The position numbers and the translations under genes were made by a program. Below the pieces are notes generated by a model. That model was not told where the DNA came from, did no database searches, and saw only the letters and a list, made by a program, of their open reading frames with translations. Positions 19,525 through 58,016 of a stretch of 64,000 bases of DNA are shown here, piece by piece. Within the stretch, counting starts at the first letter, position 1. Each line of letters starts with the position of its first letter. The stretch covers positions 138,275 to 202,274 of the forward strand of contig SHZU01000004.1 in NCBI GenBank assembly GCA_009692115.1. The letters are read 5' to 3'. This stretch comes from Gemmatimonadota bacterium (GTDB taxonomy: Bacteria > Gemmatimonadota > Gemmatimonadetes > Gemmatimonadales > GWC2-71-9).

Positions 19525-19761
19525 ATGCACGTTTCGATCCAGTACTGCGTTCAGTGAAATTACCAACCCCGAGCCGCCAGGCTGGCGGCTGAGCTCAAGG
19601 ATGCGTTCCCCACAGTCGAGATCACGATGCTGCCCTCGTCCGGTGGCGTCTTCGAGGTGACGGTGGATCAGGTCGTGACCTTTTCGAAGAAGGCCCTCCG
19701 ACGGCACGCCGAACCGGGTGAGGTCGTCGGGCTGATCCAAAGCAAGAAACCGGCGGTTTAG
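19525..19761 (+). CDS. SelW/SelT/Rdx-family selenoprotein (CxxU), UGA-Sec at 19555-19557
   Basis: GGAG lies 9 nt upstream of ATG 19525. Translation: MHVSIQYCVQ-U-NYQPRAARLAAELKDAFPTVEITMLPSSGGVFEVTVDQVVTFSKKALRRHAEPGEVVGLIQSKKPAV. The Rdx-fold pattern is present (IxYCxxU, GGxFEV, SK). The gene is absent from the ORF track because of the TGA. Confidence 0.75.
19572..19590 (+). promoter_or_regulatory. SECIS-like hairpin downstream of the SelW-like UGA
   Basis: Perfect 7-bp stem AGCCGCC/GGCGGCT with loop AGGCT. It starts 14 nt after the TGA. Confidence 0.6.
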
Positions 19762-28834: not shown

Positions 28835-31402
28835 TTGCGCCCGATCCGAGATCACAATCTTCCGCCGGACCCGGCGGCGTACCGGGCGGCGCGGCCCAAG
28901 GGCCGAGTGATTGTCATTGCCCCGACCCGGGCGGCTTGTGAGACGATCGAACTTGCGCTCGGCTCAACGTTCGAGACGCTGCTGATCCGGGAGCACGGCC
29001 AAGAATTGGTGGCCTGGGCTGAGGCGCGGAAGGGCTTCGGAATCGTGGCCGGCACCGGGACCGGGAAGACCCTGTCGGTGCGGCTCTTTGCCGAGGCCAT
29101 CCTCGGGGAATCGCTCCGCTACGGAGTGGTCAATCGTGAGCGGGAGGCCACACCCGAGACGCCGTTCTGGAACGTCATCGTGGCGACGACCGGGATTGCC
29201 CGGCGGTGGTTTCAGGACGAGCTGATCACCGCCGCGGATACGCTGGTGGTCGACGAGATCCACCAGACGTCGGCGGAGCTTGAGTTGTGCCTGGCCCTCG
29301 GCAAGCGGGCCGGTTGCCGGTTCATCTGGCTCAGTGCGACGGTCGATCCGACGTTTTACGCCAGTTACCTCAAGAGCGATCACGTCCTCGAGACCTCGGC
29401 GTTCGATCCGGCATTGAAGGCCCGGGTTCACGTCATGGCGAAGGACACCACCGAATTCTTCGACGACCGGACCATCAAACGATTGATCCGGGAACGCCGT
29501 GGCGTCGCGGTCTTCGTGCCGACCCGGGCCGAAGTGGAACGGTTGGCCGCCGAGTTGGGAGCCAAGTGGCCCGGACTGACGGCGGCCTTCTATCACGGTG
29601 GCGAACCGATTCGGGTCATTCGTCCCTTCCTTGAAGGCCAGGTCGACAAGCCGTTCCTGCTTGCGATGACCGCGGCCGGGCAATCGGCGCTCAACCTGCC
29701 CGGCCTCGACACCGTGGTGATCTACGATGCCCGGTACGGCAACGTCGTCGACCGGGGGCGGAATGTGCTGCACCGGTTGTATTTGGGTGCCAACGAAATC
29801 CTCCAGATGGCGGGCCGGGTTCATGGCAGGGTGGCCAACGGCGAGGTGACCATTCTGTCCGACCGGCCCCTTCGGTTCGAGGATCTTCGCCCGACGCCGC
29901 CGGAATTCCAGCTGGCCGGCGATGCGGAGCGGGTCGCGCTGACGTGCGCCGCCATGGGAGTGGATGCCGCCGACCTCGAACTGCCGGTGCCGCTCGATCG
30001 AACCGCGTATCGAAAGTCAGTAGCGCTATTGACGGAGCGCGGCCTCATTGCCGGAGGCCGGCTCACAAAATATGGCCGCGATGTCGAGGCGATGCCGGTC
30101 GAGCGCTGCTGGGGCGAGCTGCTGGTCAGCAGCGAGCCGGACTTGGCCCCGATGCTGGCGGTCGCCTCGGCGGTCGATTCGACCCATCGGATGACCCGGG
30201 AGGAACGTGACCTCCGCGGCGTCGCCATTCAGGGGAGCGACCACCTGACGGCGTACAACATCTACGCTGAGGCGGTGAACCGGTTCGGCGTGGTGGGCGA
30301 GGTTCATGGACTCGAGCGCCACGGATTCGAGGAAGGGATCGCTGAGTGGGCGGAGGAGCGAGGGGTCTTGGTCAAGGCGATCGAGGATGCCGCGATGGGG
30401 ATGGCGTCGGTCTACCGCTCGCTCGAATTGAAATTGCCGCGGGGGCTTCCCTACGTCAGCAAGGAACTCAAGAGCCAGTTCGCCGACTTGGTGGCCCGGG
30501 TGATGCCGTTCGATTTGGTGATTGACGAACGGACGGCGGATGGCCAAGAAGCGCGGATTGGGAAGCGGTCGTTCGCGGGCAACTGGGGCGCGGTGGCCGG
30601 GTCGCTCCGGTTCTTTGCCGACCGGTTCGGGGTGCCGCGCGCGTCGGTCGAGGGGACGACGATCTCGTACGATCAGGTTCGTCAGTACGCGAAACGGGGC
30701 GAACCTGAGGTCACCGTGAGCGGCTCGCGGAAACATCAGCGACTGCTGGTGGGCCACACCTTGTCGTATTTTGGGTTTGACCTCGAGACGATCCGGGAGC
30801 CGTTGCCGGATCTGATTCCCGAGGCCCTCCGTCCCACCGCGATGAATGCGCTGATCGATGGCGTCATCGACGGCAGCATTAACCACCCCGACCAAGGCAA
30901 GATTCGGCGAGCGGCGCGGGAGCTCGAGGAGTATTGGCGTCGGTCCGGAGGCGTCCTCGCAGCGGCCAGCCCCGACGGGGTTCGTCGCGCGGTTTCCGCT
31001 CAGCTCGAAGGCGTCACCAGCTGGTCGGATTTCATGAAGCGGCGCCTGGAACTCGATCCGGCCGATCACATCGCACTGGAACAGCGGGTGGCGTTGGATC
31101 AATTGCCCGCCACCGTGCGGTTGTTTGGCGACGCGACGGCGATCGAGTACGATATCGATCGGGGGGTTGGGGTCGCCCGGCTTCGGCTTCGGGAGGGTCA
31201 GGCCCGGCGGATGACGGAGGATGATCTGCCGGTGGTGGACCGGCCGCTCCGTTTTCAGGTGCTTCGCGGAGAGGACCCGCCGATCGAGGCGGAAACGTTG
31301 GCGATGTTGAAGGGGTTGATTAATGGCTCGGCGACTCGGCGCTCGGCACTCGGCACTCGGCAGAATCAGCAGCGGCATCAGCGGTCTCGGAGGAGACGAT
31401 GA
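28835..31402 (+). CDS. DEAH/HrpA-like ATP-dependent helicase (atypical)
   Basis: Motif I AGTGTGKT, motif II VVDEIHQTS, SAT-like LSATVDP, then FVPTRAEVE and QMAGRVHGR. Long C-terminal region. The last roughly 25 codons are encoded partly by heptamer repeats. The stop overlaps the next ATG (ATGA). Confidence 0.8.
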   Translation: MRPIRDHNLPPDPAAYRAARPKGRVIVIAPTRAACETIELALGSTFETLLIREHGQELVAWAEARKGFGIVAGTGTGKTLSVRLFAEAILGESLRYGVVNREREATPETPFWNVIVATTGIARRWFQDELITAADTLVVDEIHQTSAELELCLALGKRAGCRFIWLSATVDPTFYASYLKSDHVLETSAFDPALKARVHVMAKDTTEFFDDRTIKRLIRERRGVAVFVPTRAEVERLAAELGAKWPGLTAAFYHGGEPIRVIRPFLEGQVDKPFLLAMTAAGQSALNLPGLDTVVIYDARYGNVVDRGRNVLHRLYLGANEILQMAGRVHGRVANGEVTILSDRPLRFEDLRPTPPEFQLAGDAERVALTCAAMGVDAADLELPVPLDRTAYRKSVALLTERGLIAGGRLTKYGRDVEAMPVERCWGELLVSSEPDLAPMLAVASAVDSTHRMTREERDLRGVAIQGSDHLTAYNIYAEAVNRFGVVGEVHGLERHGFEEGIAEWAEERGVLVKAIEDAAMGMASVYRSLELKLPRGLPYVSKELKSQFADLVARVMPFDLVIDERTADGQEARIGKRSFAGNWGAVAGSLRFFADRFGVPRASVEGTTISYDQVRQYAKRGEPEVTVSGSRKHQRLLVGHTLSYFGFDLETIREPLPDLIPEALRPTAMNALIDGVIDGSINHPDQGKIRRAARELEEYWRRSGGVLAAASPDGVRRAVSAQLEGVTSWSDFMKRRLELDPADHIALEQRVALDQLPATVRLFGDATAIEYDIDRGVGVARLRLREGQARRMTEDDLPVVDRPLRFQVLRGEDPPIEAETLAMLKGLINGSATRRSALGTRQNQQRHQRSRRRR
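31327..31362 (+). repeat. tandem heptanucleotide repeat, 5 units (CTCGGCG a CTCGGCG CTCGGCA CTCGGCA CTCGGCA)
   Basis: Read directly. It lies inside the 3' end of the helicase ORF, 37 nt upstream of the next gene's ATG. Confidence 0.85.
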
Positions 31403-32856
31403 ATTGGCGATTCTTGGTGGGGGTTGGATTGGTGGGGGGGTGCGGGAAGGGGGCGCCGTCGGTGGTGGATCGGACGGCGGAGGCGGTAGCGGCGGTGGCG
31501 GCGGGGCTTCGGCCGCCGATGGCGATTCAAGGGGCGCCGGAGGTGGTGTACCGGTTGGCGGACCGGATGTCGCACTATCACGTGCCGGGGGTGTCGGTGG
31601 CGGTGGTGGACAGCGGGCGGATGGTGTGGGCGACGGGGTTTGGGGTGAAGGAGGCGGGAACGGCGGATTCGGTGTCTGCTGAGACGATCTTTCAGGCGGC
31701 GTCGATCAGCAAGCCGGTGGCGGCGACGGCGATGTTGCGACTGGTCGAGGCCGGGAAGTTATCGCTCGATACGGCGGTCAATGTCTATCTCACCAGTTGG
31801 CAACTTCCAAGCAACCAGTTTACGGCGAAGCAGGCGGTCACACTCCGGCGGGTCGTGTCGCACAGTGCTGGACTGACGATCTCGGGGTTTCCCGGGTACA
31901 AGGCCGGCGATTCGGTGCCGACGGTGCCCCAGGTCCTCGATGGGACGAAGCCGGCCAATACCGGCCCGGTCCGGGTTGACGTGGAGCCGGGGAAGATCAT
32001 GCGGTACGCGGGCGGGGGCACGACGATCATGCAGTTGGTGCTCACCGATGTCACGGGCGAATCCTTTCCCGCGTTGATGAAGCGGTTGGTGATCGATCCG
32101 ATCGGGATGACGAGCAGTACCTACGAGCAACCGCTGCCCGAATCACGCTGGGCCGAGTCGGCCGCGGCGCATGAGGCCGACGGGATCATGACGCCGGGGC
32201 GGGCCCATACCTATCCGGAAATGGCGGCGGCCGGACTCTGGACGACGCCGACTGACTTGCTCAAGTGGGCGATGGAGATTGCGGCCGCCAGGGCAGGAAC
32301 ATCTACCAAGGTGCTCTCGACGGCGACCGCGATTGAGATGCTCACGGTCCAGAAGGCTCCCGCTGGGTTGGGTCCGTTCCTGGATGGTGCCGGCCGCGGC
32401 TTCAACTTCGGCCATACCGGGGGGAATCATGGGTTTCGGTGCGAGGTGATCTACTTCCCGGAAACCGGACAGGGTGCGGCCGTGATGACCAACGGCGAGC
32501 AAGGGATCGCGCTGGTGAAGGAAATTCTCTATTCGATTGCGGCTCATTATCGATGGCCTGAGTACGGACCGCGGTCGGTGTCCCTGGTGGCCTTGGATTC
32601 GGTTCAGCTGGAGCGGTACGTCGGAACCTATGAGGCCGCCAAGCCCTTTCCGGTCTTGCTGGTGGTCAGCCGGGAGGGCGGGAAGCTCTTTGCGGAAGCG
32701 AAGGGGCTTCTTCCGCGCGAAGAGTTCGGTCTTACGACCGCGGAGAAGTCGATTGGGTTCCAATCGGGCAGTGAGGGAACCTTCCTGATGGGGCCGAGAG
32801 GTAAGGTCCTCGGAGTCGAATTTTCGGGAAATAAACTGATGCGGAAGGCCAAATAG
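31399..32856 (+). CDS. beta-lactamase-family serine hydrolase (class C/PBP-like), lipoprotein
   Basis: Lipobox LVGGCG. SxxK motif in FQAASISKPVAATAML. YSN-type and HTGG regions (FGHTGGNHGF). Confidence 0.85.
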   Translation: MNWRFLVGVGLVGGCGKGAPSVVDRTAEAVAAVAAGLRPPMAIQGAPEVVYRLADRMSHYHVPGVSVAVVDSGRMVWATGFGVKEAGTADSVSAETIFQAASISKPVAATAMLRLVEAGKLSLDTAVNVYLTSWQLPSNQFTAKQAVTLRRVVSHSAGLTISGFPGYKAGDSVPTVPQVLDGTKPANTGPVRVDVEPGKIMRYAGGGTTIMQLVLTDVTGESFPALMKRLVIDPIGMTSSTYEQPLPESRWAESAAAHEADGIMTPGRAHTYPEMAAAGLWTTPTDLLKWAMEIAAARAGTSTKVLSTATAIEMLTVQKAPAGLGPFLDGAGRGFNFGHTGGNHGFRCEVIYFPETGQGAAVMTNGEQGIALVKEILYSIAAHYRWPEYGPRSVSLVALDSVQLERYVGTYEAAKPFPVLLVVSREGGKLFAEAKGLLPREEFGLTTAEKSIGFQSGSEGTFLMGPRGKVLGVEFSGNKLMRKAK

Positions 32857-32859
32857 CCA

Positions 32860-34890
32860 ATGCGGACGACAGCGTCGATACTGGGGTTGGTGGTTGGTGC
32901 GGCAACACTCTCGGCCCAGGTGCCGGGGCCGAGTTTTCGGGACGTCATCAACCTGCAGAGCCTCGGCTCGCCGGCGATTTCGCCGGACGGGAAGGCGGTG
33001 GCCTATACGATCCGGACGACTGATTGGAAGGACAACCGGTTCGACACGGAGATCTGGTTGTGGCGTCAGGGGGCCGGCTCAATTCAACTGACCCGGTCGC
33101 CCAAGGGCAGCAGTACCGCGCCACGATGGTCACCGGATGGAAAGTGGCTCGGTTTCTTGGCCGACCGGGGCGACCGGCAGCAGTTGTATGTGATCGGGGC
33201 CATGGGCGGAGAGGCGATTCGGCTCACCGGCCTCAAGGATGGCGTGGCCGACTATCGGTGGTCGCCGGTGGGTGGGAAGATCGCCTTGGCGGCCACCGAG
33301 CCCGAGACCGAAGCCGCGACCAAAGCGAAGGCGCTGTACGGCGACTTCTTCATGGAAGAGAATGACTACCGGATGACCCATCTTTGGGTCATGGACGCCG
33401 ATCCGACCCGGTGGCTCGGCGACTCGACCGGGCTGCCGAAGCCGACCCGGCTGACCGAGGGCGGCGCCTACACGGTGGGTTCGTTCGGGTGGTCGCCGGA
33501 TGGAAGCCGGATTGCGTTCGATCACCGACGCGATCCGCTGCTGCACTCGGGGTCAACGACTGATATCTCGATCGTGACGGTGACCAATCGGGCCGTGACG
33601 CCGTTGGTGGTTCGAATTGGATCGGACGGGTCGCCGGTGTGGTCGCCCGACGGGCAATGGGTTGCCTTCACCACGTCCGCAGGCGATACCGTCTCCAATT
33701 TCTACAAGAACAGCCAGCTCATGAAAGTGGCGGCGGGAGGCGGAGTGCCGACGCGGTTGGCGGCCGACTTCGACGAGATGATCGGCTCGCTGTTGTGGAC
33801 GCCGGACGGGATTTGGTTCACGGCCTTCAACAAGACGACGTCGGGCTTCGTCCAAGTCGATCCGGTCACCGGCCGAGCGGAGCGCGATACGGGGTCGCCG
33901 TTCGTGGCGATCGGTGGGGCCGATGTGACGCGGGACGGCAAGTGGTGGGTGATCTCGGCGCAGAAGGACGGGATGTCGTTGCCGGAGTTGTACCGGGGCG
34001 AAGTGACCGGGCCGGGCGGGCCGGAAAAGCTGACCGACATGACGGCCCAGATTGCCTCGTGGAACGTCGGGCAAAACGAAGTGGTGAGCTGGCCGAGTCG
34101 GGACGGCACGATCATCGAAGGCGTACTCCACAAGCCGAAGGACTGGCAGCCGGGGAAGAAGTACCCGTTGTTCGTGGTGATTCACGGCGGGCCGACCGGG
34201 ATCGACGTTCCCCAGCCGGCGCCGTTCTACGTCTATCCGATTCCCCAGTGGGTGGCCAAGGGCGCCCTGGTACTCCGGCCGAACTACCGAGGCTCGGCTG
34301 GCTATGGCGAGAAGTTCCGGTCGCTCAACGTCCGGAACCTCGGCGTCGGCGATATGTGGGACGTGATGTCGGGTGTTGACCATCTGATCAAGAATGGCAT
34401 GGTCGACAGCACCAAGATGGCGGCCATGGGTTGGAGCCAGGGCGGGTACATCTCCGCGTTTCTGACGACCAATACCTCGCGGTTCAAGGCCATTTCGGTG
34501 GGGGCCGGAATTTCGAATTGGGTGACGTACTACGTCTCGACCGACATCTATCCGTTCACGCGCCAGTACCTCAAGGCCACGCCGTGGGACGACATGGCGA
34601 TTTACCTCAAGACCTCACCGATGACGGCGATCAAGCAGGCCCGGACGCCGACCTTGATTCAGCACGGGCAGTTCGACTGGCGGGTGCCGATCCAGAATGC
34701 CTACGAATTGAACCAGGGGTTACTCGATCAGGGGGTCCCGAGCGAGCTGATGGTCTACCGCGGCTTTGGGCACGGGATCAACAAACCGAAGGAGCAGCTC
34801 GCAGCGGTGTGGCATAACTGGCGGTGGTTTGGGAAGTACATCTTCGGCGAGCAAGTGACGATTCCGCTGGACGAACCCCCGACGCCGTGA
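32860..34890 (+). CDS. S9-family serine peptidase (beta-propeller plus alpha/beta hydrolase)
   Basis: Signal peptide. Propeller repeats (SPDGK.VA, WSPDG). Catalytic GWSQGGYIS, then D...GHG at the C-terminus. It starts 3 nt after the upstream stop. Confidence 0.9.
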   Translation: MRTTASILGLVVGAATLSAQVPGPSFRDVINLQSLGSPAISPDGKAVAYTIRTTDWKDNRFDTEIWLWRQGAGSIQLTRSPKGSSTAPRWSPDGKWLGFLADRGDRQQLYVIGAMGGEAIRLTGLKDGVADYRWSPVGGKIALAATEPETEAATKAKALYGDFFMEENDYRMTHLWVMDADPTRWLGDSTGLPKPTRLTEGGAYTVGSFGWSPDGSRIAFDHRRDPLLHSGSTTDISIVTVTNRAVTPLVVRIGSDGSPVWSPDGQWVAFTTSAGDTVSNFYKNSQLMKVAAGGGVPTRLAADFDEMIGSLLWTPDGIWFTAFNKTTSGFVQVDPVTGRAERDTGSPFVAIGGADVTRDGKWWVISAQKDGMSLPELYRGEVTGPGGPEKLTDMTAQIASWNVGQNEVVSWPSRDGTIIEGVLHKPKDWQPGKKYPLFVVIHGGPTGIDVPQPAPFYVYPIPQWVAKGALVLRPNYRGSAGYGEKFRSLNVRNLGVGDMWDVMSGVDHLIKNGMVDSTKMAAMGWSQGGYISAFLTTNTSRFKAISVGAGISNWVTYYVSTDIYPFTRQYLKATPWDDMAIYLKTSPMTAIKQARTPTLIQHGQFDWRVPIQNAYELNQGLLDQGVPSELMVYRGFGHGINKPKEQLAAVWHNWRWFGKYIFGEQVTIPLDEPPTP

Positions 34891-35837
34891 TCGGCGTTCC
34901 GACGCTCGATGAGATCACCGCAGCGCGGGAACGGCTGAAGGGCTTTGCCGTTCGGACGCCCTTGGTGCGGTGGTACGAGGGGCCGGCGGAGATCTATCTC
35001 AAGCTCGAAACATTGCAGCCGATCGGTTCCTTCAAGATTCGAGGCGCCCGGAATGCGCTCGCGACGGCTCCGGCCGGGGCGCTGAATGCCGGAGTGTTTA
35101 CCGCGAGCGCCGGCAACATGGCCCAAGGAGTGGCGTGGTGCGCCCGGGACCTCGGGGTTCCGTGCACGGTGGTGGTGCCGGACCATGCGCCCGCCACCAA
35201 GCTCGAGGCGATCGGGCGGTTAGGCGCGGCGGTCATCAAGGTGCCGTTCGACCGGTGGTGGCGGGTGTTGCAGGAGCGGCGGTTCGAGGGGTTGGACGGG
35301 TTCTTCGTCCATCCGGTGTCGGATCCGGCGGTGATTGCCGGGAACGGCACCATCGGGCTTGAGATCGCCGAGGATTTGCCGGACGTCGATCTGGTGCTGG
35401 CTCCCTATGGCGGCGGCGGGTTGTCCTGCGGAATCGCGGCGGCGCTCCGGGCGGTGGCGCCGGGGGCGCGGGTCGTGGCGGTCGAGCCGGACACGGCGGC
35501 GCCGTTGGCGGCGTCCCTGGCGGCTGGGGTGCCGACTCCTGTGAACTATGTCCCGACGTTCATTGACGGATCGGGTGGCAAGTCGGTGCTCGCCGAGATG
35601 TGGCCGTTGGCGCGGGATCTCTTGGGCGGGTCGGTGCCGGTGTCGGTCGCGGAGGTTGCCGAGGCGATTCGGCTGATGGCGGAGCGGGTCCGGATCGTGG
35701 CTGAGGGTGCCGGAGGGTTGGCGCTGGCCGCGGCGCGGTCGGGCCGGGTGCCGGGCCGGAAGATCGTCTGTGTGGTGTCGGGCGGGAATCTCGACGCGGC
35801 CCGATTGATCACCATACTAGAGGGGCGGGTGCCGTAA
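34887..35837 (+). CDS. PLP-dependent threonine/serine dehydratase-family enzyme
   Basis: GTG 34887 overlaps the S9 stop (GTGA). PLP-lysine motif GSFKIRGA, and SAGNMAQGVA. The track ORF start 34824 overlaps the upstream gene. Confidence 0.85.
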   Translation: MIGVPTLDEITAARERLKGFAVRTPLVRWYEGPAEIYLKLETLQPIGSFKIRGARNALATAPAGALNAGVFTASAGNMAQGVAWCARDLGVPCTVVVPDHAPATKLEAIGRLGAAVIKVPFDRWWRVLQERRFEGLDGFFVHPVSDPAVIAGNGTIGLEIAEDLPDVDLVLAPYGGGGLSCGIAAALRAVAPGARVVAVEPDTAAPLAASLAAGVPTPVNYVPTFIDGSGGKSVLAEMWPLARDLLGGSVPVSVAEVAEAIRLMAERVRIVAEGAGGLALAAARSGRVPGRKIVCVVSGGNLDAARLITILEGRVP

Positions 35838-35841
35838 CGGA

Positions 35842-36192
35842 CTACTTCACGAACCGCCGGTAGGTCTCCTCGTCGAATCCAACCAACAACGTTCGTCCTT
35901 TCCGAGCGGTCGGCGCCCTGAGGTTGCCGCTCGGGCCGATCAACAGCGTCGTGATCTCGTCTTTGGACGGTTCCGCGCCTTTCAGGACGAGGTGCACCAC
36001 CTTCTTGCCTTTGGTGGCATAGATCTCGTCGATGCCCTCCAGCACATCGAACGCGTGTTTGGCGCTGATGGTGTGCTTCTTGGCATCGACCGTCGTCGCG
36101 ACGGAGGCCTTGGCTGACGCAAGGAACCCTTGCGTTCGTTTGCAGGTAATTCAGCCAGGGCGAAGATAGGCCCAGTCGAGTGATGCAGCCAT
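35842..36192 (-). CDS. ArsC/Spx-family thioredoxin-fold selenoprotein (UxxC), UGA-Sec at 36153-36151
   Basis: The track shows only the C-terminal 67 aa. The same frame upstream reads MAASLDWAYLRPG-U-ITCKRTQGFLASAKASVATTVDAKKHTISAKHAFDVLEGIDEIYATKGKKVV...GPSGNLRAPTARKGRTLLVGFDEETY. This is the ArsC/Spx-family pattern, with Sec at the first redox position. Confidence 0.7.
36117..36135 (-). promoter_or_regulatory. SECIS-like hairpin downstream of the ArsC-like UGA
   Basis: On the minus strand: ACGCAAGG-GTT-CCTTGCGT (8-bp stem, or 7 bp with loop GGUUC). It starts 15 nt after the TGA. Confidence 0.6.
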
Positions 36193-36199
36193 TGAGGAC

Positions 36200-37138
36200 T
36201 CAGGGTTTCGGGGTGAGGAGCCAGGCTACGGCCTGGTCGAGGAACGCGCCGACCATCAGGGTATGACCTTGGTTCGGTAATTCACGATAATCGACGGGCC
36301 AGCCAATCGCATGGGCCTGATCGACGGCGATCTTGAGCCGGGCCGGGGGCACCACGGGGTCGACCGATGCGCCGACCACCAGGGTGCGGGGGAGTGTCGC
36401 GCCGGCCGTGGCCGAGACCGCACCGGCCCCGGCCAGGCAGACCACCGCGGCCACCAAGCTGGCCTGATCCTGGGCCAACCGCCACGCCGTGCCACCGCCT
36501 AACGAATGACCCAGGAGGTAAACCCGGGCCCGATCAATCGGGCCGTGAGCGGCCACGTCGTCGAGGAGCCGGGGCAGGTTGGTGGAGGTCCGCATCATGG
36601 CGTTGGTGAACGGGCTGACGACGATGAAGCCCAGGCTGTCGGCCAGGCGGCGGATCCGGCCGGCGCCGTAGGCTTCGAGAAAGGCGGTTTCGTCGGCGCC
36701 GGCGCCATGGAGGGCTACCACCACCGGCGCCGGGCGATTTCCGATGGATTGAGGGCGATACAACCGGTACGGCACCTCGCCGTCTGGCGAGGAGAGGACC
36801 CGGCGTTCTCCGGAGGGCCGGTCCAGGGCGCGGAGGGCCTCGTCCCGGTGTCGAGGCCCCACGGCTGGATCGGCTTCGATGACGGTGCCGAGCGAGTCGA
36901 GGGTTCCGATCACTTGCTGATACCGGCCCCCGAAGAAGGCCAGGGTAGCCCGGTCAAAGGTCTGGTTGGTCTCGGCCATCCGGTCGGCGGCCAGTGGACG
37001 ATCACGGACCGCGAGTTCGATCCGGAGGTAGGCCAGGGCCATGGCTCGACGGGTCAACGAGTCTGGACCGGCGGGCCGGGCTTGGGCGTGGACCAGGGTC
37101 GTGGCCAGCGGGAGTGCGAGGAGCCACCGCGCCTTCAT
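36200..37138 (-). CDS. alpha/beta hydrolase (esterase/dienelactone-hydrolase-like), secreted
   Basis: Signal peptide. VVVALHGAGADE, nucleophile elbow LLGHSLGGGTA, and C-terminal ...NQGHTL... Its ATG overlaps the upstream stop (ATGA). Confidence 0.8.
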   Translation of the reverse strand: MKARWLLALPLATTLVHAQARPAGPDSLTRRAMALAYLRIELAVRDRPLAADRMAETNQTFDRATLAFFGGRYQQVIGTLDSLGTVIEADPAVGPRHRDEALRALDRPSGERRVLSSPDGEVPYRLYRPQSIGNRPAPVVVALHGAGADETAFLEAYGAGRIRRLADSLGFIVVSPFTNAMMRTSTNLPRLLDDVAAHGPIDRARVYLLGHSLGGGTAWRLAQDQASLVAAVVCLAGAGAVSATAGATLPRTLVVGASVDPVVPPARLKIAVDQAHAIGWPVDYRELPNQGHTLMVGAFLDQAVAWLLTPKP

Positions 37139-38706
37139 TGGGCGGCCGCTTTCGCTTGTTCCTGCTCGACCAGGATTCGGCGGAGAATCTTGCCCGAGGG
37201 AGACTTCGGAATCGACTCGACGATTTCCACCCGGCGAACCTTGTCGATCGGCGAGACCTTGGAGGCCACGTAGGCCATGATCTCGTCGGGGGTGAGCGGT
37301 GCTTTCAGGACCACGAAGGCTTTCGGAACCTCACCCGCTTCCGGGTCGGGGCTTGGAATGACGGCCGCATCGGCGATGGCGGGATGGCTCAGCAGAACGG
37401 CCTCGAGGTCGGCCGGGGCCACCTGATGGCCCTTGTACTTGATGAGTTCCTTGACCCGGTCGACGATGTAGTAGTAACCGTCGGCGTCGACGTAGCCGAT
37501 ATCTCCGGTGTGGAGCCAGTGGTCCTGGTCAAGCGTCGCGGCGGTTTCGGCCGGGCGATTCAGGTAGCCCTTCATGACGTTCGGCCCCCGCAGCAGGACT
37601 TCGCCCCGGCCGCCGACGTCCTGGTCCAGACCCGTTGCTGGATCGACGATGCGGGCTTCCTGGCTCGGGGCCAGGAAGCCAACGGAACCGTGGCGGACCA
37701 CGGCCGGGTCTCGGGGAGAGAGGTGGCTCGCGCCCGACAACTCGGTCATCCCATAGCCCTGCACCACCAAGCACTTGAGCCGGTTGCCGCAGGCAACCTC
37801 GATCTCCGCGCCGAGCGGTGCGGCGCCCGACATCACAAACTTGAGGGCCGAGAGGTCATACCGGTCGACCACCGGATGTTTCGCCAGGGCGACCACGATC
37901 GGCGGGACCAGCGGCGCTACCGAAACCCGGTACTTGGCCAAGGTGGCGAGGAACGGTTCCAACTCGAACCGGCCGATCACCACCAAGCGGCCGCCGTTCC
38001 ACAGGTTGCTGAGCAGGATCAAGGTCAGCCCGTAGATGTGGAAGAACGGCAGCACGGCGGCGACGGAATCCGTGCTGGTCGGTTGTTGAACCGCAACGAA
38101 CTGGCGCAATTGCGAGACGATGCATTCGTGCGTCAGGATGACCGCTTTCGGGCGGCCGCTGGTGCCGCTCGACCACGGCATGACGGCGATGGCGGTTCTC
38201 GGATCGATGGCGACGTCGACGGCGATCGGATCAACGTCGAACAGGGTGACTAGCGGGGTCGCGCCGGGTGCGGTGCCCAGCACGAACACCTCCTCGACTC
38301 CCGCTCGCTTGGCTCCATCCAGGGCCCGGTCGAGCAGAGCCGGCACAGTAACCAAGAAGCGGGCTTTGGTCTCGCCGAGCTGAGCGGCCAAGTCGTCGGC
38401 GGTGGCGAGCGGGTTCAACGTGGTCGAGGTTCCGCCGGTTTGACTGACGCCGAGGAGGATGGCCGCGTACTCGATCAGATTCGGGAGTAACACGGCAAAG
38501 ACTTGGCCGGGCCCGAACTTTCTCCGGGCCAGGCCCGATGCCAGCCGGCGGGTGTCGTCGACGATCTGACCACAGGTGACATGACGGTCGGTGGCCGCGT
38601 CGATCATGGCCACCTGGTCCGGCCGTTCCTTCATCCGGTCGAGCAGGAGGGTCGAGAACGCGACGTTCGGGTAGCTGACGTCCGGGTACCGGCTTCGGTG
38701 AATCAT
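37135..38706 (-). CDS. AMP-binding acyl-/aryl-CoA ligase (4-coumarate-CoA-ligase-like)
   Basis: ATG 38706 (MIHRSRYPDV...). Motifs MPWSSGTSGRPKAVILTH, QGYGMTE, TGDIGYVDADGYYYIVDRVKELIKYKG and SGKILRR. The track N-terminus (to 39147) lies inside the upstream gene. Confidence 0.9.
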   Translation of the reverse strand: MIHRSRYPDVSYPNVAFSTLLLDRMKERPDQVAMIDAATDRHVTCGQIVDDTRRLASGLARRKFGPGQVFAVLLPNLIEYAAILLGVSQTGGTSTTLNPLATADDLAAQLGETKARFLVTVPALLDRALDGAKRAGVEEVFVLGTAPGATPLVTLFDVDPIAVDVAIDPRTAIAVMPWSSGTSGRPKAVILTHECIVSQLRQFVAVQQPTSTDSVAAVLPFFHIYGLTLILLSNLWNGGRLVVIGRFELEPFLATLAKYRVSVAPLVPPIVVALAKHPVVDRYDLSALKFVMSGAAPLGAEIEVACGNRLKCLVVQGYGMTELSGASHLSPRDPAVVRHGSVGFLAPSQEARIVDPATGLDQDVGGRGEVLLRGPNVMKGYLNRPAETAATLDQDHWLHTGDIGYVDADGYYYIVDRVKELIKYKGHQVAPADLEAVLLSHPAIADAAVIPSPDPEAGEVPKAFVVLKAPLTPDEIMAYVASKVSPIDKVRRVEIVESIPKSPSGKILRRILVEQEQAKAAAQ

Positions 38707-38711
38707 CGCGG

Positions 38712-39776
38712 TCAATCCTGCCGTGGGGCCGGGGTCGGGCGGCCGCCTGGATTCCACTGTGGCTTCGGGCCGTCGGCCAGGAGGCGAACGGCTTTGGCGG
38801 CCGCATTGATGACGGAGGTCATGTGCACCGAGTCGACTTTGTCGGCTTGGTCGCTGGGCTGGTGGTAGTCGGCATGCATGTTGTAGCTCGACAGCGTGTG
38901 CGCCACAATTCCCTTCAGCGCGAACTGGTAGTTGTCGCTTCGACGGAAGAAGTTCTGGGCCGGTCGTTTGTCGGGGACGATCGGGATTCCCGCTGCCGCG
39001 AGGGCCGGGCCCATGGTGCTCCGTTCGTAGCCGGTGAGCCAGGCTCGGCCCGGGCCCCCGGCCAGCGAATCGGGCCGGCCGATCATTTCGATCTCGAGGT
39101 TGAGTGCCATCTGGTCGAGCGGCAGTACGGGGTGGTCGGAATACCACCGAGCGCCCAAGAGTCCCCGTTCCTCGCCGGTCCAGGCCGCGAAAATGATGGT
39201 CCGGCGAGGCTGAGGTCCGGCCTTGAGTTGCTCGGCGATCTTGAGCACGGCGACGACGCCAGAGGCATCGTCGTCGGCGCCGTTGAAGATCGAGTCGCCA
39301 CTCGGATGGGCCCGAACGCCGATGTGGTCGTAGTGGGCCCCCACCACGATGTGCTCTCGGGCCAGTGATGGGTCGGCACCTTCCAATTTGCCCAAGATAT
39401 TGAAGCCCGGAACCCGTTTCGCGGTCGGGAACGAATCGCGGGCGGCGAAACTGGCGACCAAGTTGATCGCCGCCACTTCGCGCTGGTTGACGACCCGAGT
39501 CGTCATGGTCAGCGGGATTCGCTGGAGATAGCCGCTGTCGCCAACCGGCGTGAGCCCGACCCGGGCCATTTCGCGGCTGATGATGCCGGCCGCTTTGGCA
39601 ATCCCGGGTGTCCCCGTGAGCCGTCCCTCGAGGGAGTCGTGGGCGAGTGCCGTGAGGAGGGCCAGTACCGCGGCGGGTGACGAGGCGTTGGGTCCGACAG
39701 ACTCAACCGGGCGGGCACCTCCGCATCCGGTGGCCAGCGCGAGCCCAACCACCATCGAACGGTTACGACTCCACAT
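38712..39776 (-). CDS. M28-family metallo-aminopeptidase, lipoprotein
   Basis: Lipobox LALATGCGG. Motifs GAHYDHIG, GADDDASGVVAVL and FAAWTGEERGLLG. Confidence 0.85.
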   Translation of the reverse strand: MWSRNRSMVVGLALATGCGGARPVESVGPNASSPAAVLALLTALAHDSLEGRLTGTPGIAKAAGIISREMARVGLTPVGDSGYLQRIPLTMTTRVVNQREVAAINLVASFAARDSFPTAKRVPGFNILGKLEGADPSLAREHIVVGAHYDHIGVRAHPSGDSIFNGADDDASGVVAVLKIAEQLKAGPQPRRTIIFAAWTGEERGLLGARWYSDHPVLPLDQMALNLEIEMIGRPDSLAGGPGRAWLTGYERSTMGPALAAAGIPIVPDKRPAQNFFRRSDNYQFALKGIVAHTLSSYNMHADYHQPSDQADKVDSVHMTSVINAAAKAVRLLADGPKPQWNPGGRPTPAPRQD

Positions 39777-41031
39777 AGTCCAAATTCTTTCCGAACGTCT
39801 CTTCCAGTCCGGCTAGGGAGAGATAGGCGATGACCAACGTTGCGGCCCCGACGGCCATGGCGCTGCCTGGAATACCGAGCTCGGGCTTCAGGGCCTGGAA
39901 CACGATGGTCAGCGGCACGACGGCCCCCCGGACGAAGTTCGGGGCAGTTGATGCCACGGTGCCCCGAAGATTGGTGCCGAACTGCTCGGATGCCACCGTG
40001 ACGAATACGGCCCAGTATCCGGAGGTTGCCCCGAGGATTCCGCAGGCCAGATAGAACGCGGTCAGTGAGCCCAGGCCGCCCATGATGAAGTAGTTGGCGA
40101 TTCCGAGCCCGCAGAGCGTGATGAAGACGAGGAGGGCCTTCTTCCGGCTCCGGAGCACTTGACTCAAGGCGCCGCTCAGGAGATCGCCCAAGGTGGCGCC
40201 GATGTAGGCGAACATGACCGCGCGGCCGGCGGTTGGTGCCGTCTCGAGCCCGAGGGCTTTGCCGATTTCAGGCGAGAAGGTGACCAGGATACCCATGACA
40301 AACCAAGTCGGGAGCCCGACGAGTACCACCGACAGGTAGCGGAGGGCTCGGGTTGGAGTCGAAAAGAGCAGAAGCATATTGCCCTTGCCGACGGCCTTCT
40401 TCTTGACCGCCTCGAACATGCCCGACTCGGTGACGCCGATTCGAAGGGCCAGGAGCGAAAGGCCCAGGACCCCGCCGATGACGTAGGCCGTCCGCCACGG
40501 AAACAGGTCGCCGACCAAGCCAGCGACGACCGCGCCAAGGAGGCCGAGACTCGCGACGATGGTGGTGCCCCAGCCGCGCCCTTCGCGGGACATGATTTCC
40601 GCCACCAGCGTGATGCCGGCGCCCAGTTCGCCGGCCAGTCCGATCCCGGCAATGAACCGGAGCCAGGCGTACTGATCGACCGTTTGGACTCCGGCATTGG
40701 CGATGTTGGCCAGGGAATACATCAGGATCGAACCGAACAGCACGGACCGGCGCCCGTAATTGTCGGCCAGGATACCCCAGGCGATCCCGCCGAGGAGCAA
40801 TCCGGTCATCTGCATGTTGATGAGCCGAACCCCGACCGCCAGGACATCCGCTTGGGCGACGCCCAGGCTCAACAGGCTTGGGACCCGCACGATGCTGAAC
40901 AACAGCAGGTCGTAGACGTCGACGAAATACCCGAGGGCCGCGACGAAGACGGCGAGATGGATTCTTCGAGAGGACAAGGGGGTCTTAGTGTTTCGGGGTG
41001 AGGGATGCGGACACGAGGCGCATGAACTCAT
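39763..41031 (-). CDS. MFS transporter
   Basis: 422 aa with about 12 hydrophobic segments. MFS loop motif ADNYGRRSV. The start may lie slightly downstream, because the track start overlaps the upstream gene by 47 nt. Confidence 0.8.
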   Translation of the reverse strand: MSSCASCPHPSPRNTKTPLSSRRIHLAVFVAALGYFVDVYDLLLFSIVRVPSLLSLGVAQADVLAVGVRLINMQMTGLLLGGIAWGILADNYGRRSVLFGSILMYSLANIANAGVQTVDQYAWLRFIAGIGLAGELGAGITLVAEIMSREGRGWGTTIVASLGLLGAVVAGLVGDLFPWRTAYVIGGVLGLSLLALRIGVTESGMFEAVKKKAVGKGNMLLLFSTPTRALRYLSVVLVGLPTWFVMGILVTFSPEIGKALGLETAPTAGRAVMFAYIGATLGDLLSGALSQVLRSRKKALLVFITLCGLGIANYFIMGGLGSLTAFYLACGILGATSGYWAVFVTVASEQFGTNLRGTVASTAPNFVRGAVVPLTIVFQALKPELGIPGSAMAVGAATLVIAYLSLAGLEETFGKNLDYVES

Positions 41032-42124
41032 TGGTCCGGGCGTTGTCGAACCATCGGACCACGACTACGAGATCTTGGGCCGGGTCGATCCAGATGACGT
41101 TGCCGCCGGCGCCCAGGGCAAAAAAACTGGAGGCCGAGGCGGCGGGGAATTGTAAGCGGTCGGTGTTGAGCCACCACATGTAGCCGTAGACCGGGCGGAG
41201 CGGAGTGGGCGTCAGGGCCTTCTCGATCCACTGCTCTGACAGGAGCTGCTTCCCGGCCCAGTTTCCGTGGCGGGCCATCAGGAGGCCAAATCGGGCGTGG
41301 TCGAGGGTGGTGGCCCAGAACCCGCCTCCCCAGTGGCCACCTCCGCTCACCGATGGCATCCGCCGCCCGTCGATCTCGGCGTACGCGTTGAAGTACCCGT
41401 GCCAGAGCCAACTGTCGGACATCCCGATCGGGTCGGCGATGGCTTGCTTGAAGACGTCGGGTAACGGCTTCCGAAACAACCGGAGCAGGGACAGGGCCAG
41501 CCGATTGACGCGAACGTCGTTGTATTCCCAGGTGGTACCGGGCTCGGTCAGGGCCCGGTCGTAGCCCAAACGCCGGTCGGCGACATCGGGCTTGTCCCAG
41601 AGGGTCCCTTCCCATTCGCTGGTCTGGTTGAGGTGCATGTGCCAGGTGATTTTGGCATTGTGGGGGCTGTCGAACCCGCCATCCTTGATGAGCCGGGCTT
41701 CGGGGGCGGTGAGATCGGGAATCAAACCTCGGTCAAAGGCCAACCCCGCCACGGTGGAGAGGTAGCTCTTGGCGACGCTGAAGGTCATGTCGACCTGACT
41801 GGTGTTGCCCCACTCGGCCACCAGGTACCCGTTCTTGATGATGATCCCGTTGGTTTGGGCGCGGTCCTTGACCGGCCCGACGATGGCGGGGAACGGTTCC
41901 TTGGCGGTGTTCTTCTTGATCTGCTCAATGAGGTTGGTCGGCCATCCGATATCCGCGGACCTGGCAAAGGCCACAGCCGCCGCGAGGGCCGCTGAATCGA
42001 GCCCGACCTCGGCGGGCGAGCGCCGCTGCCAGTCGGCCTTGGCCGGGAAGTACCGGCTGGACTGGGCGGTGGCCGGCATCGGCGCGAGCACGCCGAGGAG
42101 AACAAGGATGATTCTACGGAGCAT
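40985..42124 (-). CDS. beta-lactamase-family serine hydrolase, secreted
   Basis: ATG 42124 gives signal MLRRIILVLLGVLAPMPATAQ. SxxK motif in FSVAKSYLSTVAGLAF. The track ORF start 42292 includes a poly-Gly artefact. Confidence 0.8.
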   Translation of the reverse strand: MLRRIILVLLGVLAPMPATAQSSRYFPAKADWQRRSPAEVGLDSAALAAAVAFARSADIGWPTNLIEQIKKNTAKEPFPAIVGPVKDRAQTNGIIIKNGYLVAEWGNTSQVDMTFSVAKSYLSTVAGLAFDRGLIPDLTAPEARLIKDGGFDSPHNAKITWHMHLNQTSEWEGTLWDKPDVADRRLGYDRALTEPGTTWEYNDVRVNRLALSLLRLFRKPLPDVFKQAIADPIGMSDSWLWHGYFNAYAEIDGRRMPSVSGGGHWGGGFWATTLDHARFGLLMARHGNWAGKQLLSEQWIEKALTPTPLRPVYGYMWWLNTDRLQFPAASASSFFALGAGGNVIWIDPAQDLVVVVRWFDNARTNEFMRLVSASLTPKH

Positions 42125-42278
42125 CGCACCCGGCTTTCGAGAAGGCCGGGAGAATATACGCCACCGCAGGCTACGGTGGTTGAAGCGCCGGCGGTCGAGG
42201 TACTTGTGCGTTGTGGGGCGGGTCCGTCGTCTTTTGGGTCCTCCCGGTTCCCCGCCTCCGCCGCCCCCACCGCCGCCG

Positions 42279-42722
42279 GCCGGCAGTGACATCGCGCTCG
42301 GGCTGGCCGCGGTCCAACGGGAGTGCGCCTCGTGTCACGCGTCGCAGGATTGGTTCGATCTCGCCTTCTTCTCGTACTCGGATACGACGATCATCCGGCG
42401 GGCTGTCAAGCACGTCGTTACGACGACTGCTCATCGGATCGTGGCGTACATTCGGTCCCTCAACATCCCTCACGTTCCCTCGGCCAGCGCGCTGTTTCAG
42501 CCCGGCGGGAGAACGGTTGCCGACGACGTCCAGTTCGCGGTCAATCTCTCCGGCCAAGGCACGTGGCCCACGCAGACCACTGCTCAGTTGGTGGCGATCA
42601 ATCCGATTACGACTCCGGTGGCGATGGCCCTACCGAAGTGGTCAGACGAGGGCTCGAACCTCGATTGGCTCCCGGACTCAGCGCCGCCGCCCGGGTTCGG
42701 ATCGACCCGAAGGACGTGGTGA
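42279..42722 (+). pseudogene. c-type cytochrome gene remnant (haem motif CASCH, no signal peptide or start, C-terminally cut)
   Basis: ...GSDIALGLAAVQRECASCHASQDWFDLAFFSYSDTTIIRRAVKHV... with CxxCH at 42324-42338. It is preceded only by a poly-Pro tract and has no plausible start or signal. The reading frame ends where the udk-like frame begins. Confidence 0.4.
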
Positions 42723-43083: not shown

Positions 43084-44709
43084 ATGAAGGTTGTGGTGCT
43101 TGGATCGCTGCTGGCGTTGGTGGCCGTGCCCGTTATGGAGGCCCAGCGCCCGGAGGCGCTGGATTCGGTTTTTTCGGCGTACGATCGGACCGATGGACCC
43201 GGCTGCGCCGTGGCCGTGAGTCGCGATGGGAAGGTGCTGGCCGCCCGCGGTTTTGGAATGTCCGACCTGGCTCAAAACCTCGCGATCACGCCGCACTCGG
43301 TGTTTCATGTGGCGTCGGTCTCGAAGCAGTTCACCGGGATGAGCTTGGTGCTGCTGGCCAAGAGCGGCGCCGTCTCGCTGGATGACGACATCCGGAAGTA
43401 TCTCCCCGAGCTTCCGTCATACAGCCAAGTGGTGACCATCCGTCACCTCCTGACCCACACCGGCGGGATCCGCGACCAGTGGAGTCTGTTGATGACGGCC
43501 GGTTGGCGGCTCGGTGATGACCTGATTACCGAGCAAGACGTGCTCGAGATCGTGGTCCGGCAGCGCTCGCTGAACTTCGCACCGGGGACCGATTGGCTCT
43601 ACAGTAATTCTGGATTCTCGTTGGCCGCTATCATCGTCAAACGGGTCACCGGTAAGACCCTTCGGGAATACGCCGAGGAGCAGATGTTCCGGCCGCTCCA
43701 GATGAGTCAGACCCATTTCCACGATGACAACGGCATGGTGGTCCTAGGCCGAACCCGGGGGTACGGATATCAGGGGGCCTGGAAGGAAACCGTCCCGAAC
43801 TACTCCACGGTCGGGGCGACCAGTCTGTTCACCACGGTGATCGACTTGGTGCAGTGGCACCGGCATCTCGACGAAGGCCTGTTAGGCGGACCGGAATCCC
43901 TCCGGACTTTGCTCACCCCGGCGGTCCTGACCTCGGGTGATTCGCTCAAATACGCCCTCGGGATTCAGCATGGCAGCTACCGGGGGGTGCCGACGATTTC
44001 CCATTCCGGAGGCGATCCGGGCTACCGGACGCATTTACTCCACTTCCCGCGCTTCAAGGGCGGGGTGTCGGTGTTGTGTAACCAGAATGAAGCCAACCCA
44101 GTGCTGTTGGGCGAGCAAACGGCCGATCGGTTCTTCGCGAGCGAGTTGCAACCGGTCCGGATCCCGGGTGATTCGGCAGCCGGGGGGGCGTTGGTCGAGG
44201 CGACCGGGCTCTACTGGAGCGAACAGACCGAGGGCATTGCCACGGTTGAAATCGAGGGCACTCGCTTGGGTTGGAAAACCGGGCCGGTCAGTACCAGGCT
44301 CCGACGACTGACTGAGGATTCCTATTCGATCGGCAACGGGCCGGGGCGGCTCCAGGTGGTGCCGAACGGCGTGGTGGCCCGGACCGGGAACGGGGAGCCG
44401 TCGCGCTATGCTCGCGTCGATGCCTGGGTTCCGAGCGCGGCGGACCGAGCGGCCCTAGCCGGCCGCTATACCAGCGATGAGATCGGGGTCACCTGGCAGA
44501 TTCGGCTCGCCGGCGATACCCTGTCGCTCGAGCGGCGAAAGTTCTCTGCCGCTCCGTTGACCGCGGTGTTTCGAGATACGTATACCGCCAGTTCCGGCGG
44601 CCTCCAACTGGTGATCCGAGCGGTTCGTGACAAAGCAGGAAAAGTGACCGGAGTGACCGTGGGATCCGGACGGGTTCGGCGGGTAGCGTTTTCCAAGGAG
44701 AAGGCATGA
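43084..44709 (+). CDS. beta-lactamase-family serine hydrolase with C-terminal extension domain
   Basis: Signal peptide. SxxK in FHVASVSKQFTGMSLVLL, then YSNSGF and SHSGGDPGY. Its stop overlaps the next ATG (ATGA). Confidence 0.85.
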   Translation: MKVVVLGSLLALVAVPVMEAQRPEALDSVFSAYDRTDGPGCAVAVSRDGKVLAARGFGMSDLAQNLAITPHSVFHVASVSKQFTGMSLVLLAKSGAVSLDDDIRKYLPELPSYSQVVTIRHLLTHTGGIRDQWSLLMTAGWRLGDDLITEQDVLEIVVRQRSLNFAPGTDWLYSNSGFSLAAIIVKRVTGKTLREYAEEQMFRPLQMSQTHFHDDNGMVVLGRTRGYGYQGAWKETVPNYSTVGATSLFTTVIDLVQWHRHLDEGLLGGPESLRTLLTPAVLTSGDSLKYALGIQHGSYRGVPTISHSGGDPGYRTHLLHFPRFKGGVSVLCNQNEANPVLLGEQTADRFFASELQPVRIPGDSAAGGALVEATGLYWSEQTEGIATVEIEGTRLGWKTGPVSTRLRRLTEDSYSIGNGPGRLQVVPNGVVARTGNGEPSRYARVDAWVPSAADRAALAGRYTSDEIGVTWQIRLAGDTLSLERRKFSAAPLTAVFRDTYTASSGGLQLVIRAVRDKAGKVTGVTVGSGRVRRVAFSKEKA

Positions 44710-55461: not shown

Positions 55462-55875
55462 ATGATTCGAAGTTTGCACCATGCCACCGCGACGGTCTCG
55501 GGCGCCCAGGCCGACCTCGACTTCTATGTCGGGCTGCTCGGCCTTCGTCTGGTCAAGAAGACCGTCAATTTCGACAACCACCACGTTTTTCACTTCTACT
55601 ACGGGGACGAACGGGGAACACCGGGGACGATCATGACCACGTTTCCCTATGCGGACATGGGGGTCCGGGTGGGCCGGAAAGGCTCGGGGCAAATCACGGC
55701 GACTGGGTTTTCGGTCCCGGCCGGCTCGCTCGGCGTGTGGCGGGCGCGGCTCGCCGAGCATCGGGTGGCCGTCACCGGCGAGGGAACCCGGTTCGGGGGG
55801 CCGTTCTTGGGCTTCGACGACCCGTCCTCGTTGGCCATCGAGTTGATCGAGTCCGGCGCCGGTGCGCCGGACTAG
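55462..55875 (+). CDS. VOC (glyoxalase/ring-cleaving dioxygenase) family protein, single-domain length
   Basis: IRSLHHATATVSGAQADLDFYVGLLGLRLVKKTVNFDNHHVFHFYYGDERGTPGTIMTTFP resembles the N-terminal module of two-domain MhqO-type dioxygenases. The ORF stops after 137 aa, abutting the convergent gene. Confidence 0.7.
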   Translation: MIRSLHHATATVSGAQADLDFYVGLLGLRLVKKTVNFDNHHVFHFYYGDERGTPGTIMTTFPYADMGVRVGRKGSGQITATGFSVPAGSLGVWRARLAEHRVAVTGEGTRFGGPFLGFDDPSSLAIELIESGAGAPD

Positions 55876-58004: not shown

Positions 58005-58016
58005 GGTTGCCTCCAC

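Follow-up and report, generated by a model that had tools for sequence, protein, structure and literature searches.

An in-frame UGA very probably encodes selenocysteine in an ArsC-family protein gene of a Gemmatimonadota bacterium

Does the TGA triplet that interrupts a short minus-strand frame end a gene, or does it lie inside one? The question is raised by a locus in a 64,000-nucleotide stretch of contig SHZU01000004.1 (Gemmatimonadota bacterium, assembly GCA_009692115.1, positions 138,275 to 202,274), which is called the window hereafter. For this locus, the mechanical list of open reading frames (ORFs) holds only one entry, an ORF of 67 amino acids (aa) from a GTG codon at 35842..36045 on the minus strand. 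An initial annotation, made from the nucleotide sequence, had proposed a longer gene with a selenocysteine (Sec) codon followed by a hairpin resembling a selenocysteine insertion sequence (SECIS). Comparison with homologues suggests that 36192..35842 on the minus strand is very probably a true selenoprotein gene of the ArsC-family (seleno)protein family, with Sec at codon 14. The features of the locus are the following.

35842..36192, minus strand: full coding sequence of the putative ArsC-family selenoprotein, with 116 sense codons, Sec as codon 14 and a TAG stop at 35844-35842 (from the translation, the NF041106 match and full-length homologues in 62 loci).
36190..36192, minus strand: ATG start, 7 nucleotides (nt) 3' of the TGA (36202-36200) that ends the preceding alpha/beta-hydrolase gene (from the sequence).
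36151..36153, minus strand: in-frame UGA, very probably read as Sec (residue 14, motif U-I-T-C; from the TGA/TGC alternation and the alignment to Spx Cys10 and E. coli ArsC Cys12).
36142..36144, minus strand: codon of Cys17, which is presumed to be the resolving residue of the UxxC motif; this Cys is almost invariant across the family and aligns with Spx Cys13.
36117..36135, minus strand: SECIS-like hairpin, with 5' arm 36135-36128 ACGCAAGG, loop 36127-36125 GUU and 3' arm 36124-36117 CCUUGCGU (DNA: CCTTGCGT).
36112..36156, minus strand: possible extended lower stem, in which GGCUGA (36156-36151, containing the UGA) pairs with UCAGCC (36117-36112) in the minimum free energy fold.
35842..36045, minus strand: ORF of 67 aa that begins at the internal GTG (36045-36043), an artefact of gene calling that corresponds to the C-terminal 58% of the full protein.

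Read from the ATG at 36192, the minus-strand frame gives MAASLDWAYLRPG*ITCKRTQGFLA..., with ITCKRTQGFLASAK after the TGA, and contains this one TGA only (36153-36151). The 116-aa read-through frame with a single UGA was thus borne out by the sequence and its translation, and the other coordinates proposed earlier (the truncated ORF, the TGA, the hairpin, a SelW-like gene and a six-gene string) were also found to be right. The start sites of the relatives likewise lie 4-5 residues ahead of a conserved DW motif. A UGA that encodes selenocysteine would lead gene callers to cut the gene to the 67-residue fragment; and the same short call is held in public data (P0010, 67 aa, 97% identical to the short ORF of the window, on 24 contigs).

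The read-through product, with U read as C, matched the NCBIfam model NF041106 "ArsC family (seleno)protein" with 133.4 bits (cutoff 85, E 4.2e-39) over model positions 1-107 of 107, and the ArsC/Spx-family identity proposed at first is thereby placed in a curated family at full length. The alignment to Pfam PF03960 (ArsC) covered positions 1-79 of 79 with E 5.4e-5, and its score was 23.9 bits against a gathering cutoff of 24.0; the specific model NF041106 is the decisive one. Precomputed PF03960 matches are present on full-length Cys homologues. The Spx/MgsR models TIGR01617 and NF002459 scored below their cutoffs (36 vs 75.05 bits and 21.9 vs 123 bits, respectively), and on these scores the Spx regulator was set aside as the family assignment. 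No NCBIfam arsC model matched the read-through product at E <=1. The protein is filed under NF041106 and the ArsC/Spx/YffB superfamily, and neither under arsenate reductase nor under Spx.

A large protein collection contains 2,214 relatives at E <=1e-5, and the members from Gemmatimonadales and Methylomirabilota are already named "ArsC family (seleno)protein" by NCBI. Of the 120 top-ranking database relatives, by far the most are entries of 102 aa that start right after the Sec codon, or fragments of 67-82 aa; the family is systematically cut short in public gene calls. A scan of one genome per species yielded a sample of 62 related loci from about ten phyla, including Gemmatimonadota (79-92% identity), Acidobacteriota, Methylomirabilota, Rokubacteria, Planctomycetota, Nitrospinota, Zixibacteria, Myxococcota and others. 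The codon alignment (n=62) consists of the window and 61 loci that cover the UGA codon.

These sequences bear on the simplest alternative, namely that the TGA is a genuine stop and the gene is a short downstream ORF, of 67 aa from the GTG at 36045 or of about 102 aa from just after the TGA, with the 13 upstream codons untranslated. ORF calling does yield the 67-aa ORF, and many 102-aa and 67-aa versions are stored in public collections. However, the peptide D-W-x-Y-x-R-x-G 5' of the UGA (D-W-A-Y-L-R-P-G in the window) is conserved across phyla, in all of the aligned sequences. When the window is compared with seven Gemmatimonadota relatives, the eight codons that precede the TGA differ only by synonymous substitutions, which indicates that this stretch is translated and under purifying selection. 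Just 3' of the TGA, the window has the codon ATT, and most relatives have AAG, ACG or CAG; none of these is a start codon, so translation cannot begin there. Moreover, the Cys orthologues are uninterrupted full-length proteins, whereas, as judged from the AlphaFold2 (AF2) model of the Cys orthologue P0004, the elements beta1-alpha1-beta2 and the entire redox motif would be missing from a 67-aa product. The initial annotation had taken the sequence upstream of the internal GTG and the UGA to be coding, and the conservation of the peptide agrees with this; orthologues that start at the GTG (36045) with nothing conserved upstream were not what was found. Termination at this TGA is thus considered highly improbable.

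The aligned codon itself is TGA in 57/62 sequences and TGC in the other five (5/62). In addition, the positional orthologues L064 and L066 (Gemmatimonadales) have TGC or TGT at the UGA position, and these loci share the MFS-M28-ArsC-like / PALP-S9 synteny with the window. The Cys proteins P0004 and P0007 (Gemmatimonadales, 59-63% identical) are encoded in the order major facilitator superfamily (MFS) transporter, M28 peptidase, ArsC-like gene, then a convergent pyridoxal phosphate (PLP) enzyme, S9 peptidase and beta-lactamase-fold gene; this is the same chromosomal position, and they are positional orthologues of the window gene. The UGA therefore aligns with Cys in homologues that include positional orthologues of the same order, as the Cys/Sec switch anticipated for this codon would have it. 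The second Cys of the motif is also Cys in 56/57 Sec forms, and Thr in L059.

Two unusual homologues were observed at this motif. In L059 (6034-6087, a metagenome-assembled genome of Ignavibacteriales, CAZJWR010000006.1), U-K-T-T replaces U-x-T-C and the hairpin is bulged; this locus may be a one-selenol variant of the NF041106 family. The protein P0070 (JGI, 168 aa) has Trp at the Sec/Cys position (PGWTSC) and an unrelated C-terminal extension of about 50 residues, and the Trp could be a TGA-to-TGG change, a sequencing error or the mark of a decaying copy.

The hairpin lies 3' of the UGA. Its spacer from the UGA is 15 nt in the window (about 15-16 nt), and the stem has 8 base pairs (bp), or 7 bp with a GGUUC loop. 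The conserved core is CGCAAG / CUUGCG with the loop G-G-U-U-C, which spans the codons T20-Q21-G22-F23-L24-A25; its offset is fixed, and it is present in essentially all of the 57 Sec forms. Because the hairpin codons T-Q-(G/E/A)-F-L-A also encode conserved protein, which is a confound, the silent sites were examined, with the codon use in the remainder of the same genes as background. Thr is encoded by ACG in 47/47 cases (background 42%), Gln by CAA in 38/55 (26%), Phe by UUU in 36/55 (22%), Leu by CUU in 55/57 (8%), and Ala by GCG in 52/56 (40%).

The pairing was also compared between the sequences. The six core pairs form in 51-55 of the 56 distinct sequences in the 57-sequence alignment; the closing pair covaries (A-U 22, G-C 21), and the loop G and U are invariant. 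When residue 22 is Glu (GAG) the next Phe codon is exactly UUU, and when it is Gly (GGG) the Phe codon is exactly UUC (alignment columns 32/36), so that by this coupling the closing base pair is kept. In the Nitrospinota-like group, Ala (GCG) is combined with UUU, and the loop has 5 nt. Controls with a slid register all paired far worse than the true register, and L060 (Myxococcales) has a wholly different sequence here, GCGUCCAGG-UUC-CUGGACGC, but retains the stem. The outermost A-U pair and the possible lower stem are limited to close relatives: UCAGCC is found in L001-L003, is altered in L004 and L005, and is absent in other phyla. The hairpin is missing from the five Cys forms of the genome scan; and in the Cys-form DNA of the positional orthologues, TGC or TGT is followed by GCU CAG GGA UUC AUC GAC, where no hairpin forms. 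As judged from these alignments, the hairpin is selected at the RNA level and goes with the UGA. The data also point to a protein-RNA co-constraint, in which the Glu/Gly replacement covaries with a silent Phe codon change and one base pair is kept. The 8-bp hairpin noticed earlier 15 nt after the UGA is thus conserved with covariation, and absent from the Cys forms.

The window contains a second putative selenoprotein gene, 16 kb from the ArsC-like gene.

19525-19761, plus strand: SelW/Rdx-family putative selenoprotein gene of 78 residues (MHVSIQYCVQU...), with the UGA at 19555-19557 as codon 11 and the motif CVQU.

Its product (U as C) matched Pfam Rdx with 74 bits, and the ATG is preceded, at a distance of 9 nt, by a Shine-Dalgarno-like GGAG motif. 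The hairpin at 19572-19590 has a 14-nt spacer, an 8-bp stem AGCCGCCA/UGGCGGCU and the loop GGC. Since the UGA is at codon 11, the gene is not callable as an ORF. The SelW-like recoded gene with its 14-nt distance from UGA to stem was therefore confirmed by the Rdx match. The like geometry of the two genes (15 vs 14 nt) was confirmed too, but not the argument that this geometry makes chance unlikely, as coincidences in the window occur at the chance rate. For further recoded genes, a motif screen and a gap-restricted screen replaced a screen based on the GC content of third codon positions, which was too loose and missed even the ArsC-like gene; no TGA-interrupted coding frame beyond the ArsC-like and SelW-like genes was found in the window. 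The SelW-like gene gives indirect support for the use of Sec, and the presence of two candidate recoded genes in one window indicates that this Gemmatimonadota lineage probably uses selenocysteine. The literature searched on Sec use in Gemmatimonadetes yielded nothing relevant.

The position of the UGA in the protein was examined with a family profile built from 33 NF041106-family members. Spx was the closest solved relative (E 1e-9), followed by uncharacterised ArsC-family proteins, YffB and a Brucella ArsC-related protein. The alignment pairs U14/C17 with Spx Cys10/Cys13, and the invariant L-R-A-P with Spx L-R-R-P. In the AF2 model of P0004 (m1b5d82e7d4ee; predicted local distance difference test score 93), the U/C residue caps the N-terminus of helix alpha1 immediately after strand beta1, where thioredoxin folds canonically have their active site. 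Foldseek searches with this model also recovered Spx, ArsC-family proteins, YffB and glutaredoxins. The UGA had been placed at the N-terminal CxxC/CxxS redox motif of ArsC/Spx/YffB-like proteins, and the alignments of U14/C17 with the Spx CxxC and of U14 with E. coli ArsC Cys12 agree with that placement.

Several observations weigh against selenocysteine insertion at this locus, or leave the protein without a guide to its role. The fold z-score of the hairpin is only -1.3 to -1.4 versus shuffled sequences, and its stability is not unusual for a GC-rich sequence. Comparable hairpins, perfect over 7 bp or more and with an early G in the loop, occur after about 0.4% of positions taken arbitrarily; one was found 3' of 5 of the ~1,630 TGA trinucleotides in the window, where ~6 were expected. 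The hairpin overlaps the conserved residues TQ-G/E-FLA, and part of its conservation is therefore at the protein level. No Rfam SECIS family matched the whole window at gathering thresholds, or 35800-36250 at E <=10; the bacterial SECIS models in Rfam cover few lineages only. The hairpin alone is thus not significant within the window, and the case rests on the comparative evidence from the relatives, which is strong.

The decoding machinery and the protein raise further points on this side. NCBIfam/Pfam scans of ~40 ORFs revealed no SelA, SelB or SelD in the 64-kb window, and tblastn of E. coli SelA, SelB and SelD gave no matches to the window or to any of the related loci; these negatives concern the scanned sequence and carry no information on the remainder of the genome. 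No tRNA-Sec was found in the window; ARAGORN detected no tRNA or tmRNA gene there or in 614 kb of related loci, and since an E. coli-type tRNA-Ala used as a positive control was detected, this zero is considered real, though somewhat low. The ability of the organism to decode Sec is thus only inferred. In addition, the structural match of the P0004 model to Spx and ArsC is moderate (template modelling score, TM, ~0.55), no biochemically characterised family member was found in the literature searched, and no neighbour gene is conserved across phyla to point at a substrate: the neighbourhood clustering of the 62 loci gave only clade-specific synteny and shadow ORFs.

The lack of visible Sec machinery in the window would also suit a decaying pseudogene, in which a Cys codon became TGA in a lineage unable to insert selenocysteine, and TGC to TGA is a single-base change. 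However, a decaying gene would hardly keep the TGA in 57 of 62 sequences and about ten phyla with the frame intact on both sides, purifying selection on both flanks, and a co-conserved, covarying hairpin in the TGA forms only; and a second intact candidate selenoprotein gene lies in the same window. Decay of this gene is therefore given very little credence.

Near-cognate or suppressor decoding might instead place one of the standard amino acids (Trp, Cys or Gly) at the UGA, the hairpin being a generic stimulator of read-through. The homologue P0070 does have Trp (TGG) at this position, and the insertion of Sec is itself deduced and not observed. On the other hand, the position alternates only with Cys in the full-length homologues, which is the signature of a Sec/Cys pair, and it is occupied by the catalytic residue of a redox motif. 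The hairpin also has the apical-loop G that is conserved in bacterial SECIS elements (PMC1794560); and TGA is the commonest normal stop. Such read-through is considered scarcely probable. A genome-wide reassignment of TGA was also ruled out, because TGA is the ordinary stop of 22/46 window genes, and the recoding is thus site-specific and not part of a reassigned code.

Selenocysteine decoding therefore stays the preferred reading, and the following scheme is proposed for it. The gene would encode a 116-residue cytoplasmic selenoprotein of the ArsC/Spx/YffB thioredoxin-fold superfamily, in which the UGA of codon 14 is decoded as selenocysteine. The mRNA 15-16 nt 3' of the UGA would fold into the hairpin of 7-8 bp with the G-G-U-U-C apical loop and act as a bacterial SECIS, recruiting SelB-GTP-Sec-tRNA(Sec) to the UGA (36153-36151) in place of release factor 2. 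The invariant loop G-U of the ArsC-like Sec forms is like that of bacterial SECIS elements (E. coli fdhF, bSECISearch), and the GGUUC loop resembles the GGUC loop of fdhF. The distance from the UGA to the apical loop is 22-23 nt here, inside the range of bSECISearch, and the spacer to the stem is 15-16 nt, compared with the 11 nt reported for the minimal fdhF element. Within the protein, Sec14 at the N-terminus of alpha1 would be the attacking nucleophile, and Cys17, one helical turn later, the resolving residue. The most likely chemistry would be a cycle from selenol/thiol to selenenylsulfide, which reduces a disulfide, a mixed disulfide or an oxyanion-type substrate; a thioredoxin- or glutaredoxin-type system might then re-reduce the protein.

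The relation of the family to the characterized members of the superfamily was also considered. The closest likeness is to Spx, the redox-sensing, RNA-polymerase-binding regulator of Bacillus subtilis (PDB 1Z3E, 6GHB), as seen in the profile match, the Foldseek match (E 6e-5) and the N-terminal CxxC switch at U14/C17. From this likeness it could follow, by analogy, that the family is a selenocysteine redox switch that regulates another protein, e.g. RNA polymerase, and is not an enzyme. But the Spx model scores are far below cutoff, the 116-aa product lacks the C-terminal tail of Spx (131 aa), and the TM is only about 0.55. The P0004 model also has a beta-hairpin at residues 55-68, inserted between the two halves of the thioredoxin fold; the Spx and ArsC structures are helical in this region, and the central region of the model presumably corresponds to the Spx helices that contact RNA polymerase. 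The low scores, the missing tail and the central beta-hairpin lower the odds of a regulator, which seems very unlikely.

The other two relatives are reductases or putative ones. The product shares the superfamily with ArsC (E. coli chromosomal / R773, glutaredoxin-coupled), and in the alignment the catalytic Cys12 of its Y-H-x-P-x-C turn falls on U14; the motif is CxxS in ArsC, whereas it is UxxC here. An hhalign comparison of the family profile with E. coli ArsC aligned only 25 columns around the active site (probability 18%). The arsenate-binding triad of E. coli ArsC consists of Arg60/Arg94/Arg107. Homology to ArsC over the full length, including this triad, was not found, and only R92 (of LRAP) is an obvious candidate equivalent. 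No ars operon context (arsR, arsB/ACR3) was found among the genes near the window locus or the related loci examined. With the alignment confined to the active-site turn and ars genes missing from the surroundings, arsenate reductase was set aside as the family assignment. YffB (PA3664; PDB 1RW1), a putative glutathione-dependent thiol reductase of the ArsC family, has a similar length (114 aa) and fold (profile E 1e-4, Foldseek TM 0.57); however, the identity is 18%, YffB is not a selenoprotein, and its own function is putative. The TM of ~0.55 to all solved relatives suggests a structurally distinct branch of the superfamily. On the basis of the model, it is tentatively proposed that the family may be such a branch, whose substrate would differ from those of ArsC, Spx and YffB; this is doubtful as yet, although likelier than a Spx-like regulator.

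The neighbourhood of the gene consists of six minus-strand genes from ~42124 to 35842, encoding a beta-lactamase fold protein, an MFS transporter, an M28 peptidase, an acyl-CoA ligase, an alpha/beta hydrolase and, as the last one, the ArsC-like putative selenoprotein. The ORF list and the domain matches thus agree with the six-gene string (42124-35842) described at first. A convergent gene for a PLP-dependent enzyme ends 4 nt from the ArsC-like gene. In the Cys-form loci (L064, L066), the M28 peptidase gene is directly upstream of the ArsC-like gene. The acyl-CoA ligase and alpha/beta hydrolase genes are inserted between these two in the window (36200-38706, minus strand) and in L001-L005; in L006 and L007 the ligase is present and the hydrolase is not.

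The longest ORF of the acyl-CoA ligase (37135-39147, minus strand) overlaps the M28 gene by ~435 nt, and homology to distant relatives begins at residue 148, so that the start is likely near 38706. In the beta-lactamase-fold ORF (40985-42292, minus strand), a poly-Gly stretch extends the N-terminus beyond a signal-peptide-like Met near 42124. The longest-ORF coordinates overstate both genes. The window as a whole is unusually rich in peptide-degrading and related genes. These include S9 prolyl-oligopeptidase or Dpp5-like proteins (32860-34890, 44706-46748, 55872-58016 and 60008-62527), four beta-lactamase-fold or D-aminopeptidase-like proteins (31399-32856, 40985-42292, 43084-44709 and 58017-59705), the M28 peptidase, an Xaa-Pro peptidase (5425-6930), a gamma-glutamyltransferase (1412-3166), a Lon protease and an amino-acid transporter.

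Selenoproteins of this kind have been reported before. An "ArsC-like" family was among the 25 bacterial selenoprotein families of 2006 (PMC1794560); the Global Ocean Sampling selenoproteome of Zhang and Gladyshev listed "Arsenate reductase 2, cd03032, UxxC" with 42 Sec sequences and 238 Cys homologues (PMC2398784); and a 2022 review listed "Arsenate reductase-like protein, COG1393, UxxC" (PMC9312934). These have the superfamily and the motif in common with NF041106, although for the families of 2006 and 2008 it is not confirmed that the sequence cluster is the same. Like the members of NF041106 (ArsC_rel_Se_1), in which Sec and Cys forms coexist, the window protein has U/C-x-x-C at the same position; the difference is that the window copy was mis-called as 67 aa. 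The finding is thus an instance of an already catalogued kind of ArsC-family selenoprotein, of which UxxC forms have been described since 2006-2008, and current understanding is unchanged by it. If the family were Spx-like after all, it would be a selenoprotein regulator instead of an enzyme. The chief value is a correction of the annotation, as this gene and most of its public relatives are stored as fragments without the active site. The second is the evidence that this Gemmatimonadota lineage may well use selenocysteine. Finally, the Sec and Cys versions at the same chromosomal position in one order form a natural experiment, in which the SECIS-like hairpin comes and goes with the UGA.

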